Shown: positions 10,277-40,428 of the stretch, one piece after another | Layout of the letters: the number at the start of each line of letters is the position of its first letter | Position numbering within the stretch: the stretch's first letter is position 1 | Origin: Candidatus Borrarchaeum weybense | GTDB taxonomy: Archaea; Asgardarchaeota; Sifarchaeia; Borrarchaeales; Borrarchaeaceae | DNA: 64,000 nt | Direction of reading: 5' to 3' | Assembly: GCA_019057385.1 (NCBI GenBank) | Contig: JAHQJS010000004.1 | Coordinates: 384,001 to 448,000 of the forward strand | Notes under the pieces: generated by a model | Databases searched by the model: none | The model's input: only the letters and a program-made list of their open reading frames with translations | What the model was told of the DNA's origin: nothing | Program-made: the position numbers and the translations under genes

Positions 10277-11596
10277 TTGCTTATATTGTTTAAAGTCTTG
10301 CATTATTCTATTAAAATCGGTATAGAAGACTTTTGTCAATTCTATGTGTATTTGCATAAATTTATAACTTCATGTTGTTTAACTAATTCGCTGAAACTTC
10401 GGGGGGTAGAACTAATTCCAACTGTAACTGTCGCAAAAGGCGTAAATCCAGAAAATGCTGTTCAAAAGTTAGTTGATTTGCTGGGCGGTTTTAAATTTAG
10501 CGAATTATCGAATTATCTCCCGCTAAAGGGTAAGATCTTAATAAAACCCAATATTGCACATAATCGCCCTGCACCTATAACAACAAATAAAGATGTAATT
10601 AAGACACTTATAACCTCGTACTTAACTGATGCAGAAGAGATCTTAGTTGGAGATAGCGCTTCGTACCCGACAAAACACATCATGAATCGATCTTGGGAAC
10701 GAATACTTGAAGGTACAGGTTTAGATAAGGCAGTAAATGAAGCTGGGGGAGAAGTGGTCGATCTCGACCAGTACGAATTTGTCGAGGTTGAAAATCCAGA
10801 AAACAAAGTCCTAAGAAAACCATTAATTTCTAAACTTATTTTTGATGTAGACCATGTCATTAATGTTCCTGTTATGAAAACTCACCATATGACAACCGTG
10901 ACGCTCTGCCTTAAAAATTTGCAGGGTATCATCCATGACTCTCAAAAAACATATGCTCATCTTGATAACCTCCACCAGAAGTTAGTTGACATTTACAGAT
11001 GCGTTAAAGACAAATTTACCCTGAACATTATAGATGGAACGATAGCGATGGAAGGTCATGGTCCTGGACTTGGAACTCCCGTATATCTGAACACGCTTGT
11101 TGCGTCTCCAGATATTGTTGCCTGTGATGCAGTTGGTTGTGACATAATGGGCGTTGATCCATTTGGTATTGCACATGTACGATTAGCAAACGCACAAGGA
11201 TTGGGAGAAGGGAGACGTGATCATATAAATATAGTTGGCGATCCACTAGACAAGGTAAAACACCACTTTGCGTTACCAGATTTAGCTATAAGTGGCGTAT
11301 ATGAACGAATAGACATCTACCAAGGCGGAACTTGCCAATACTGCAAGGCAATCGTTAAGACAGCACTAGAATCTCTAAAGAAGAAAGGAGACATTTCCCT
11401 CGTCAAAGAGATGCAAGTTGTTGTAGGTAAAAATCCCTCCGAGCCCTCTACTGAATCAAGTTTGGATTTCATTGTCGGCGACTGCGCCTGTGAAAGCACA
11501 AACTGTAAAGGCACCCGGATCCTTGGTTGCCCTCCCTTCGATGCCTTCGTAAAAATCAGAAAAGCTGTGCATAACAATGCTTCTGAGAAAGTATGA
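10277..11596 (+). CDS. DUF362 family protein with C-terminal Cys-rich domain; integration target of the island (true start probably ~40 codons downstream)
   Basis: LIKPN, PVMKTH, CLKNLQG, IDGTIAMEGHGPG; C-terminal CQYC...GDC...GCPP. Confidence 0.85.
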   Translation: MLILFKVLHYSIKIGIEDFCQFYVYLHKFITSCCLTNSLKLRGVELIPTVTVAKGVNPENAVQKLVDLLGGFKFSELSNYLPLKGKILIKPNIAHNRPAPITTNKDVIKTLITSYLTDAEEILVGDSASYPTKHIMNRSWERILEGTGLDKAVNEAGGEVVDLDQYEFVEVENPENKVLRKPLISKLIFDVDHVINVPVMKTHHMTTVTLCLKNLQGIIHDSQKTYAHLDNLHQKLVDIYRCVKDKFTLNIIDGTIAMEGHGPGLGTPVYLNTLVASPDIVACDAVGCDIMGVDPFGIAHVRLANAQGLGEGRRDHINIVGDPLDKVKHHFALPDLAISGVYERIDIYQGGTCQYCKAIVKTALESLKKKGDISLVKEMQVVVGKNPSEPSTESSLDFIVGDCACESTNCKGTRILGCPPFDAFVKIRKAVHNNASEKV

Positions 11597-11620
11597 TTGC
11601 TTATGTATCGGTCGAAATCG
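11300..11620 (+). repeat. Left copy of the duplicated DUF362 3' end (attL-like)
   Basis: Homologous to 40015-40335. 77 of 95 aa identical by manual count. Homology starts at a shared TATGA (11300-11304 / 40015-40019) and runs ~25 nt past the stop. Confidence 0.9.
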
Positions 11621-11711
11621 ATTTTTACGATAAAAGCTTATATATCTTAACAGAAAAAATCTTATGGTATTTAGGTAATGCAATATATGTCTATTTTTGG
11701 GGGAGCAGTAA

Positions 11712-12020
11712 ATGAGTGAGACTCAAAAAGCTCTAAAAAACACTTAAGGAAAAACTAATTGAAGACATTAAAAAGTCTGGCTATCCACTAGAAATCGAAA
11801 TATCGTCCCTCTTGGAGAGAAAATGGTTGATCTTTATAACCAATATTATACAGACAAAAACACAAATCAGCCAAGAGAAATAGACATATTAGCTATCGAT
11901 TCTCGTCTTAATGATTTTGATGCCGAAATGAATTTGGTAATCGAATGTAACAAAAGCAATACACATGCATGGGTATTTTTCCTACATGAACTCTCCCGAG
12001 GCTTATGGAGAAATACTTGA
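11712..12020 (+). pseudogene. Frameshifted PD-(D/E)XK restriction-endonuclease-like remnant
   Basis: IKKSGYPLEIEISSLL in one frame and REIDILA...LVIECNKS..AWVFF in another; truncated. Confidence 0.55.
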
Positions 12021-12147
12021 AAAAATAGGCACAAAGGCTTGATTATCTTGATTTAAAAAAGAACCAAGCCTTTATACTTAACTAACAAGATTTCTAATGC
12101 GATAATAAACATAGCATAGGGGGTACACAAGCTTTATAAATTATACA

Positions 12148-12879
12148 TTGTTTATTTTATATGAGATGACTATAATGCAGGAAGATCCAATAATCAAACT
12201 TATAGTTGATGGTCACTATCCTGAAGTCCTTGATATAAGCGAGCAAGTGGATGAAGGTTATAATCTTTCGTTTAATAAGACTGCTTCCCGACTGTATCTT
12301 CGTAAAGGGAATAAAGCAGTTATTGTACCTAAGGGTTTTGAATGGTTTGCGATAAACTATTACAACTTGAAAAAGATGGTCGAACAAATTCCCATCAAAA
12401 TATTCATCAGTTATCCGAGAGAAGACCTTTGGCTAGCTTATAAGTTACACAAAATGCTCTCTGAAGTAGGCGTGCCTGTGTATTTGGGGGAATTATATCC
12501 CGAGCCAGGTGTAAGTCTATGGGACCAGATTGAAACCATGATTCGAAATTCTGATATTTTCATAATCCTGTGGACTCAAAACGCGCTTAATTCTGCATTC
12601 GTGAATCAGGAAATAGGTGTAGCAAAAAGTGCGGAAAAAATAATCATTCCTATAGTCGAGGAAGGAGTTGACCTAAAAGGCGCTTTAGAGGGAAAGGCGT
12701 ACATTTGCCTTAATAAGAAAGATGTTCAAGAAACGCTAAGTTCAATTTGTTCTGCCTTGCACAGATTTTTATCGCAGAAACTTGAGGAGATTAAGAAAAA
12801 ACAATCACAAGGGTTGGCTTTCGCGTTAGGTGCCATTGCTTTCTTGGGGTTACTGTTTGCACTCGGAAATAAAGGATGA
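12148..12879 (+). CDS. TIR domain protein with C-terminal membrane anchor
   Basis: IFISYPRED...SDIFIILWTQNALNSAFVNQEIGVA (catalytic E present); hydrophobic C-terminal helix. Confidence 0.85.
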   Translation: MFILYEMTIMQEDPIIKLIVDGHYPEVLDISEQVDEGYNLSFNKTASRLYLRKGNKAVIVPKGFEWFAINYYNLKKMVEQIPIKIFISYPREDLWLAYKLHKMLSEVGVPVYLGELYPEPGVSLWDQIETMIRNSDIFIILWTQNALNSAFVNQEIGVAKSAEKIIIPIVEEGVDLKGALEGKAYICLNKKDVQETLSSICSALHRFLSQKLEEIKKKQSQGLAFALGAIAFLGLLFALGNKG

Positions 12880-12930
12880 TTATAACTTGAAAAAAATCTA
12901 AGGACAAAACTAAGAGTTGTTTGTGGTAAC

Positions 12931-13311
12931 ATGGTCAGAATGAATAGTTGGAGTTATATAGCCAGGGTAGTGTTGAATCTACCAGAACATACAGATCGAA
13001 AAGTTATGAAGTGGTCAGTTCCTCACCCCTTGGAGGCGGGTTTTAGAAAAGGACACGGTGATTACGCTGAACAAAAAGGTGATTATAGACTTGCTTTACT
13101 GGATGGTAGAGGTCTACACATAAAAGAATACGATAATTATTATCTCATACATTGGGATAGATGGGATCCGTCAATTAACCCTTTGGGACACATATTCGAG
13201 GATGCACCTCATTGGCTGCCTGTTTTAGGAATTGGTGGTATCTTAACCACATTCTCAATTGCAGCACTCGTGGATAAAGTGGCGGAAGCACTCCATAAAA
13301 GAAAGGAATAA
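12931..13311 (+). CDS. Hypothetical protein with C-terminal TM helix
   Basis: GLHIKEY..YLIHWD..DP...PLGH..EDAP motif; co-oriented and tightly packed with its neighbours. Confidence 0.6.
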   Translation: MVRMNSWSYIARVVLNLPEHTDRKVMKWSVPHPLEAGFRKGHGDYAEQKGDYRLALLDGRGLHIKEYDNYYLIHWDRWDPSINPLGHIFEDAPHWLPVLGIGGILTTFSIAALVDKVAEALHKRKE

Positions 13312-39691: not shown

Positions 39692-39720
39692 CACGAGAAA
39701 CTCTCGTTTTGAATAGTGGC

Positions 39721-39730
39721 GTTTATATAG
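39721..39730 (+). promoter_or_regulatory. TATA box for guide RNA 2
   Basis: GTTTATATAG ~28 nt upstream of the conserved scaffold start. Confidence 0.55.
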
Positions 39731-39757
39731 GTCTTTGCAAGCGAATATACAAGTTAC

Positions 39758-39957
39758 AAGGCGGAATGTTCCTCGCATCACGCGGAGAACACGTTCTTGT
39801 GCATGAGACTGAACCTGAGAGGTCTGACGCCTCGTAGAAGGGAATGAATGACAGGTAGGGGACGAGAAAGGTCAAAAAACAAGTGGTGTATGCGATAAAG
39901 TGGACGTGTACCAAAAAGTAATATATAAACGATGGAGGGCTCATTTGAGCCCTTTTT
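39758..39957 (+). ncRNA. Putative guide RNA 2: scaffold 39758-39875, segment matching the integration site, terminator-like hairpin
   Basis: Second scaffold copy; 39881-39914 matches the reconstructed empty DUF362 site at 28/34. Confidence 0.72.
39936..39957 (+). terminator. Hairpin plus T-run
   Basis: agggctc-attt-gagccct followed by tttt. Confidence 0.6.
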
Positions 39958-40014
39958 ATCTATTTAAAAACTGAGTTTTCCCGCCGATTTGGTCAAAAAT
40001 ATAAAACTGATATT

Positions 40015-40311
40015 TATGATAAAGTGGATGTGTATGAAGGTGGAACTTGTCAATATTGCAAGGCAATCGTCAAAACCGCGCTACAATCTCTACACAAGAA
40101 AGGAGACATTTCGCTAGTCAAAGATATGCAAGTTATTGTTGGTAAAAACCCTTCCGAGCCATATTCGAAATCAAGTTTAGATTTTATTGTAGGCGATTGC
40201 GCATGTGAATCGACAGATTACGAGGGTATTGAAATTCCTGGTTGTCCACCCTTTGACGCTTTCGTAAAAATCAGAAAAGCAGTGCACAACAATGTTTCTG
40301 AGAAAACATAA
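40015..40311 (+). pseudogene. Displaced 3' end of the DUF362 gene (attR-like)
   Basis: YDKVDVYEGGTCQYCK...SEKT is homologous to the C-terminus of 10277-11596; no 5' part. Confidence 0.85.
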
Positions 40312-40428
40312 TTTTCTTAAGTATAGTTCTAAATTGTCACTCGATTCATAAGTCAAATTTTCAAATATTCATCCATCAATTACACAATCGATCTAGTAAA
40401 GTTCGATTAAAAGGAAAAGGGGAGTTAA

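Follow-up and report, generated by a model that had tools for sequence, protein, structure and literature searches.

How did an island of ~28.7 kb come to lie inside a DUF362 gene, and to repair it, when no tyrosine integrase is visible among its genes? The locus belongs to Candidatus Borrarchaeum weybense and was analyzed within a 64,000-nucleotide stretch (contig JAHQJS010000004.1, positions 384,001 to 448,000; hereafter the window), to which all plain coordinates refer. A preliminary description had reported the island, the replacement 3′ end that it carries, and Cas1 as the only recognized integrase. In our view the island is best explained overall as a mobile element, with an insertion site that is probably chosen by an RNA, specified by a guide sequence beside a small set of CRISPR-related genes.

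The two ends of the island are marked by a 300-nt direct repeat (11287–11586 and 40002–40301, spacing 28,715 bp), found in a repeat search of positions 10000–41000. The DUF362 gene is split at TATGA, a 5-nt core common to both copies (11300–11304 and 40015–40019). From this core onward the two 3′ copies share 98 codons, slightly more than the ~95 first claimed, with 79/98 identical amino acids (80.6%, against a claimed ~81%) and 78.2% nucleotide identity; 30 of the codon differences are synonymous and 20 non-synonymous, and weak similarity continues for ~25 nt beyond the stop codon. As already described, the left copy completes an intact open reading frame (ORF; 10277–11596, Pfam DUF362), and the right copy lacks a homologous 5′ part.

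A comparison with relatives lacking the island had been set beforehand, and it confirms that the island lies within the gene: congener G004 carries an empty allele, in which DUF362 passes directly into the gene that begins at 40429 in the window. Over 40046–40308 the right copy shares 99.2% identity with G004, and over 40020–40045 it matches G002 at 26/26 positions, whereas the left copy is only 76–86% identical to all relatives (79% to G004, 76% to G002, and 86% to G003). Upstream of 11300, the gene is 95–96% identical to G004 and G002 (10790–11299). From this comparison the island spans 11305–40019, and, judged by these identities, the right copy is the displaced native 3′ end and the left copy a foreign replacement, as the preliminary description had supposed. 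The cargo was not found as a block in the four congeners searched. Public contigs agree with the assembly, including the right junction and a split in the helicase-Cas1 gene described below; of these, X1 is possibly the source sample itself, and X2 and X4 come from the same study. None of the contigs carries a circular junction or the empty site, which has no bearing on whether these exist, since rare forms drop out of contigs. The notion that no island exists, and that the right copy is what remains of an independent paralog, could appeal to the ~10 DUF362 paralogs of this genome. These are only 26–35% identical, however; the right copy shares 99% identity with the orthologous end of the congener and is followed by the same gene as there, and the empty allele of G004 refutes the idea, to which we attach next to no probability.

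The reported lack of a tyrosine integrase also holds. No match to PF00589 or PF00239 was found in the window, a tyrosine-recombinase profile built from the genome was likewise negative, and no island ORF matched a recombinase model in the profile scan, which left five ORFs without a family match; Cas1 is the sole integrase-family protein found in the island. Integrase islands typically repair the gene that they enter by means of a replacement end brought along with them. A conventional recombinase, either one of the five unmatched ORFs or one of the seven tyrosine recombinases encoded elsewhere in the genome, could thus have acted on TATGA, with the CRISPR-related genes as mere cargo. The unmatched ORFs, however, sit in an SMC/Hsp70 cassette that has other flanks elsewhere and are single-copy in the genome; the sister islands described below share no common core, and a guide that matches the insertion site (guide B, below) would be left unexplained. 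We consider this origin very improbable.

Toward its right end, the island encodes a helicase, a Cas1-family protein, a Cas7, and a Cas5-like protein with an HD nuclease domain (Cas5-HD). The Cas1 match to TIGR00287 lies below the model cut-off, with only four representatives at E<1e-30, but the top Foldseek match of its predicted fold is the casposase 6opm (E 8e-12), Cas1 structures being matched as well, and the putative catalytic residues (E, H, and DxxE) are invariant in five aligned copies. Helicase and Cas1 form a single ORF of 1323–1336 amino acids in at least four other copies of the genome; here the fusion is broken by a 34-nt tandem duplication near 35097–35137, inside a predicted winged-helix region. 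Assembly error was rejected as the cause of this split, since public contigs show the same letters (two samples of one study). The genome holds six helicase-Cas1 loci and 11 Cas7 genes, and six copies retain Cas1 fused to or beside the helicase. Among named relatives, the closest to Cas7 are from Ca. Borrarchaeum (61–78%), followed by Hodarchaeota/Heimdallarchaeota. In a predicted model of Cas5-HD, residues 118–271 align with the Csm1 HD domain (VIA-align; Z 7.9, a modest value; root mean square deviation 3.9, 138 aligned), and residues 3–98 align with a type I-A Cascade RAMP subunit at a likewise modest score (Z 5.7, root mean square deviation 2.7, 83 aligned). The HD, HH, D, and H motif residues are invariant and intact in 8/8 aligned copies. 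Elsewhere, a Cas7/Cas5-HD pair lies among apparent phage portal, capsid, and terminase genes (L073:9974-11504).

Behind both cas7 and cas5-HD lies a 124-nt element that has 27 matches in the genome and is followed by variable sequence. In an alignment of 51 copies, 12/25 predicted pairs show compensatory change, strongly so in the 5′ hairpin; the structure of this scaffold is supported by that covariation and not by the single-sequence fold, which is unremarkable for scaffold B (z −1.35). Rfam returned no match to the scaffold, and no CRISPR array was found among the direct repeats of 10000–41000. Two tandem scaffolds also occur without cas genes in G001 (L055:260-554), where the rps19e start codon lies 7 nt behind the second.

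The sequence behind scaffold A, guide A, matches the promoter region of the island's own cas7, ~1,060 bp upstream. Across ten such guide–promoter pairs, which are related copies and not independent, mismatches fall on positions 7, 13, 19, 25, 31, 37, and 43 in 55/70 cases, versus 19/320 elsewhere; owing to this relatedness, a Fisher p value exaggerates the significance of the contrast. Because the promoter target is non-coding, this sixth-base pattern is not codon wobble. It is the pattern of base flipping at each sixth position along a Cas7 backbone, as is established for class 1 complexes (10.1101/2020.07.02.184150). A promoter-matching guide was not found in distant Heimdall loci, and the putative promoter guides at L089 and C4:1003329 have no match upstream.

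Guide B, behind scaffold B, points to the insertion site itself. When the empty site is reconstituted by joining 11290–11304 to 40020–40038, the guide matches it at 28/34 positions, with 4/6 mismatches on sixth positions. Over 32 nt, the match is 26/32 (25/27 with the sixth bases left out), compared with 22/32 for the present left junction, in its replacement-end version, 23/32 for the right junction, and 25/32 for the empty allele of G002. The best match in the present genome is 25/34, and shuffled guides reach 22–26/34 genome-wide. The junction falls at guide positions 15–21, inside the gene. Inspection by eye of the sequence upstream of five targets revealed no PAM-like motif (protospacer adjacent motif). 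While the island and the gene repair of the preliminary description stand, it had overlooked guide B, the Cas7 and Cas5-HD genes, and the split helicase-Cas1 fusion. In two assemblies (L039 and L094), the match of a guide is to an hsdM-type methyltransferase motif that lies ~1,318 bp downstream, and the differences are mostly at third positions.

Congeners have empty sites for seven further islands of this genome, and every one of these islands has its end either inside a guide match or immediately after a scaffold. In the ftsY and PRC-barrel islands, the native stub (a 5′ stub in ftsY) runs exactly to the start of the guide match and the element brings a replacement end (5′ in ftsY), and in the pyrD island, the element supplies a new start; in all three, one junction lies at the start of or within the guide match. 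The guides fit the empty allele of a congener better than the occupied allele (of 32 positions: ftsY 27 vs 25, PRC-barrel 29 vs 24, and pyrD 30 vs 23). The C5 island carries a weaker, internal guide to its own junction. In the three other islands, host sequence begins 7–12 nt behind the scaffold, in the same register as elsewhere; tail and flank are there one sequence, and the guide match is therefore trivial. Sixth positions coincide with codon third positions in 6/7 identifiable coding targets. One junction per island is non-homologous, repeatedly at guide position 6–8, although junctions overall range from guide position ~6 to beyond 37, and their sequences differ between islands, unlike a fixed att core. 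A 16-mer scan for the left-end halves of the guides missed known junctions and returned chance matches.

Several observations touch these and related loci. The pyrD island (L033:2790-8042, G000 C3) encodes Cas7 only; its two neighbors, a nop56-like gene and pyrD, both have replaced starts, and the intergenic DNA between them has been replaced as well. Just outside the left end of the PRC island lies, by eye, a tRNA-like gene with apparently more than one intron (L034 near 12700–12900; G000 C3:98.6-98.9k). Heimdall-group modules (L075-L081 and L109-L136) carry other conserved elements of ~150 nt after cas5-HD, abutting rpoE, EF-2, a Ubc-like gene, or a tRNA-like sequence. Tandem copies occur in L109 and L125, and several of the modules have a divergent gene of ~550 amino acids with a weak LAGLIDADG-like match.

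The tails behind the scaffolds might instead be DNA duplications of the flanks, or might regulate only the neighboring host gene, with insertion not guided by RNA. At several loci the tail is indeed contiguous host DNA, and for guide A a regulatory role is the simplest reading, as for CRISPR RNA (crRNA)-like elements that target promoters (10.1101/2023.03.03.530964). Duplication, however, does not give a period of six bases where the target is non-coding; separate guides agree better with the empty allele than with the DNA that now adjoins them, and island boundaries lie inside the matched stretch at every testable locus. We regard this explanation as improbable, and RNA-guided choice of the insertion site as probable on the pattern of these matches.

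In the mechanism that we propose, scaffold and guide would be transcribed and bound by several Cas7 subunits and Cas5-HD to form a Cascade-like complex, which would pair with its target while every sixth base is flipped out. With guide A, this complex would repress cas7 (autoregulation), and with guide B, it would locate the empty DUF362 allele. The helicase-Cas1 fusion might then join the element into the R-loop site, aided by a nick from the HD domain, a weaker step to which we give about an even chance; fused copies from other loci of the genome could supply this activity in trans. The incoming DNA would have brought a DUF362 3′ end taken up from an earlier, more distant host, and because this end is carried along, the gene would be rebuilt and the rebuilt site would match the guide less well. 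Joining is the step of which we are least sure, and the arguments for and against Cas1 as its catalyst are evenly balanced. The same balance applies to the wider proposal of a class of RNA-programmed Cas1 integrases, in which Cas7/Cas5-HD and a non-CRISPR scaffold RNA would direct helicase-Cas1 to a 30–35-nt site, insert tens of kilobases, and rebuild the gene, unrelated to the Tn7 CRISPR-associated transposons (CASTs).

Several points weigh against this proposed mechanism. The RNA, the complex, and the integration step are all predictions from sequence. Guide B matches the empty allele of G004 at only 24/32 positions. In several islands and close relatives, Cas7/Cas5-HD occur without Cas1 within 5–8 kb upstream, so Cas1 is not always in cis, and in the island under study the helicase-Cas1 gene is split; because of this duplication, its copy may be crippled and may no longer move by itself. 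A Cas1 transposase is expected to need terminal inverted repeats or a shared end motif, and inspection of six islands by eye showed neither a terminal inverted repeat nor a left-end motif in common. Nor are all insertions clean cut-and-paste events: in the PRC and ftsY islands, the occupied allele is diverged from relatives over a large part of the target, and at pyrD, replacement extends to two gene starts and 130 bp of intergenic DNA.

Given that Cas1 is often absent in cis, that the ends share no motif, and that homologous element DNA at times takes the place of the target, a nick followed by host recombination is a serious rival for the joining step. Here Cas7/Cas5-HD would nick or cut the empty allele under the same RNA guidance, and host homologous recombination would copy the island in, with homology provided by the gene end on the element or by the DNA of the guide; the role of Cas1 would shrink to the making of new guides, or Cas1 would not be needed at all. 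The intact HD motif would suit such homing, as would the variable junction position, the frequent replacement of targets or gene ends by diverged homologous DNA, and the lack of conserved element ends. It would not account for the one non-homologous junction per island that recurs at guide position 6–8, nor for the six copies in which Cas1 stays with the helicase and the invariance of its putative active-site residues. The elements also occupy many unrelated sites, and homing alone cannot start these. We rate homing without an integrase as rather unlikely.

The DUF362 site appears to have been used more than once. Sequence agreement between G004 and G002 drops from 96% upstream of 11300 to 83% downstream, and the break begins in the target, where G004 has 26 nt of left-like sequence followed by the native end. 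Scaffold remnants lie close by in G000 (41246–41302), G002, G003, and G004. The degenerate scaffold at 41246–41302 stands just after the gene at 40429–41172, and a partial scaffold stands at the same place in G004; an older element may therefore have ended there. We infer that the pattern in G004 fits an earlier island lost by recombination between its two copies, which would have left a less targetable scar.

By its cargo, the island is a defense island of an Asgard archaeon (Table 1). Its TIR, RNase III, and long Argonaute genes form one run; a 78% copy of the RNase III lies at G000:C7:633k, and the final 30 codons of the Argonaute are found again at C4:1031k. The nine-gene cassette recurs in the same order but with other flanks in an unrelated metagenome contig (L182), where the 475-aa protein is 64% identical. 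It resembles an SMC-type defense system, with no convincing match to a PADLOC model; the ESM Atlas gave nothing usable for its 475- and 407-aa ORFs, and its five ORFs without a family match have no second copy in the genome and are not in the sister islands. A 70-nt sequence at 32246–32315 is 90% identical to C4:345907-345976, just upstream of the ftsY-island helicase-Cas1, and is a possible shared regulatory or end sequence.

Table 1. Features of the DUF362 locus and its island, in window coordinates.
Feature	Position	Strand	Basis
DUF362, native 5′ part (first possible start 10277; real start probably further in)	10277–11304	+	PF04015 E 1e-48
Guide-B target, left half (guide positions 7–21), ending in TATGA 11300–11304	11290–11304	+	Sequence match
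Element-borne DUF362 replacement 3′ end (stop at 11596), plus ~25 nt	11305–11620	+	Identity to relatives
Frameshifted remnant, probable PD-(D/E)xK-type gene	11710–12050	+	Inferred by eye from six-frame translation
TIR-domain protein	12148–12879	+	PF13676 E 1e-16
126-aa hypothetical protein	12931–13311	+	No family match
RNase III with dsRBD	13259–14107	+	PF00636, PF00035
Long prokaryotic Argonaute (Piwi)	14091–16421	+	PF02171 E 2e-23
Convergent 129-aa ORF (+) and HD-domain protein (−)	17038–19020	+/−	phrog_14939; PF19276/PF01966
Nine-gene cassette: five hypotheticals (−), AAA ATPase, SMC-like ATPase, Hsp70-like (+), 256-aa ORF (−)	19079–31970	+/−	
Ski2/Hel308-like helicase, N-terminal part of helicase-Cas1 fusion	33430–35133	+	Family search, alignment with sister copies
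Cas1-family protein, Zn-finger-like middle, C-terminal Cas1 fold	35123–37468	+	TIGR00287 E 7e-7; PADLOC Cas1 E 2e-10
Guide-A target, cas7 promoter region (44/47)	37704–37750	+	Sequence match
Cas7/Csm3-like RAMP	37783–38598	+	PF03787; PADLOC Csm3 E 1e-10
Scaffold A, 124 nt	38646–38769	+	Conserved, covarying
Guide A (mismatches at guide positions 7, 9, 43)	38770–38817	+	Matches own cas7 promoter
Cas5-like RRM fused to Cas10-type HD nuclease domain, 271 aa	38876–39691	+	Predicted model, VIA-align
Scaffold B	39755–39874	+	Conserved, covarying
6-nt linker and guide B (39881–39914)	39875–39914	+	Matches reconstituted DUF362 site 28/34
Hairpin and T run, terminator-like, after guide B	39936–39957	+	Sequence, fold
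Element right end	39958–40014	+	No similarity to empty alleles
Displaced native DUF362 3′ end (core 40015–40019; guide-B target right half 40020–40038)	40015–40311	+	Congener alignment

Among known systems, the module comes closest to ARAMP (Asgard RAMP), which two published summaries list as array-less and enigmatic, without an RNA or mobility, and with a nuclease that is most often HNH or PD-(D/E)xK (PMC8730458, PMC12669027). An Asgard host, the lack of a CRISPR array, a diverged type III-like Cas7 with Cas5, and a distinct Cas1 are shared, and by gene content, the module fits an ARAMP member as summarized there: the protein set is known but uncharacterized, and the kind of activity would be new. 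The island differs in its scaffolded guides, matched insertion sites, and empty alleles. Its own nuclease domain is an HD domain fused to Cas5, and a PD-(D/E)xK gene is present in one Heimdall locus. The accessible literature on ARAMP and Asgard Cas1, which represents the 2020 description of ARAMP through summaries only, yielded no description of ARAMP guides or mobility. Our explanation would provide ARAMP with a guide RNA, a target, and a function, for whose direct test three proteins and one 170-nt RNA suffice, and would show how Asgard archaea receive defense genes (Argonaute, TIR) at core genes. If Cas1 is the catalyst, this would be a route of RNA-guided integration apart from Tn7 CASTs, moving up to ~29 kb, and would unite, on a single mobile element, a Cas1 of casposon type and a class 1 effector.

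As in Tn7-like CASTs, a guide on a Cas7 backbone would pick a site in a conserved gene with its sixth positions on wobble bases, an alignment described for the homing guides of type I-F3 CASTs (10.1101/2020.07.02.184150). CASTs, however, insert past the protospacer and outside the reading frame, whereas here the boundary lies inside the match and inside the gene; the guide comes from a 124-nt scaffold and not from a CRISPR repeat, the HD motif is intact, and gene ends are replaced. No match to TnsA, TnsB, TnsC, or TniQ was found in Pfam, NCBIfam, or PADLOC among the island ORFs, five of which have no family match. With casposons, the island shares a Cas1-family enzyme on an integrated element and 6opm as top fold match, but there is no PolB gene among its ORFs, only a 5-nt shared core in place of a long target duplication, and no inverted repeat joining the island ends among the 25 longest. 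Casposons are targeted by protein and are not known to be guided by RNA. The island thus falls outside both groups, although in its working, by analogy, it would resemble the CAST homing pathway.

Tyrosine-integrase islands show the same carried replacement and displaced native end, but no such integrase was found here and there is no fixed att core across the sister islands. Guide A, which pairs with the promoter of its own effector and has sixth-base mismatches, recalls CreA and mini-array crRNA-like regulators that target promoters (10.1101/2023.03.03.530964), yet it is not flanked by CRISPR repeats, and its scaffold is the same as that of the site-matching guide. Finally, in the aCas1-TnpB elements of Asgard archaea (PMC10691335), an Asgard Cas1 has likewise been proposed as a transposase beside an RNA-guided partner; that partner is TnpB with an omega-RNA, whereas here it would be a Cas7/Cas5-HD complex.

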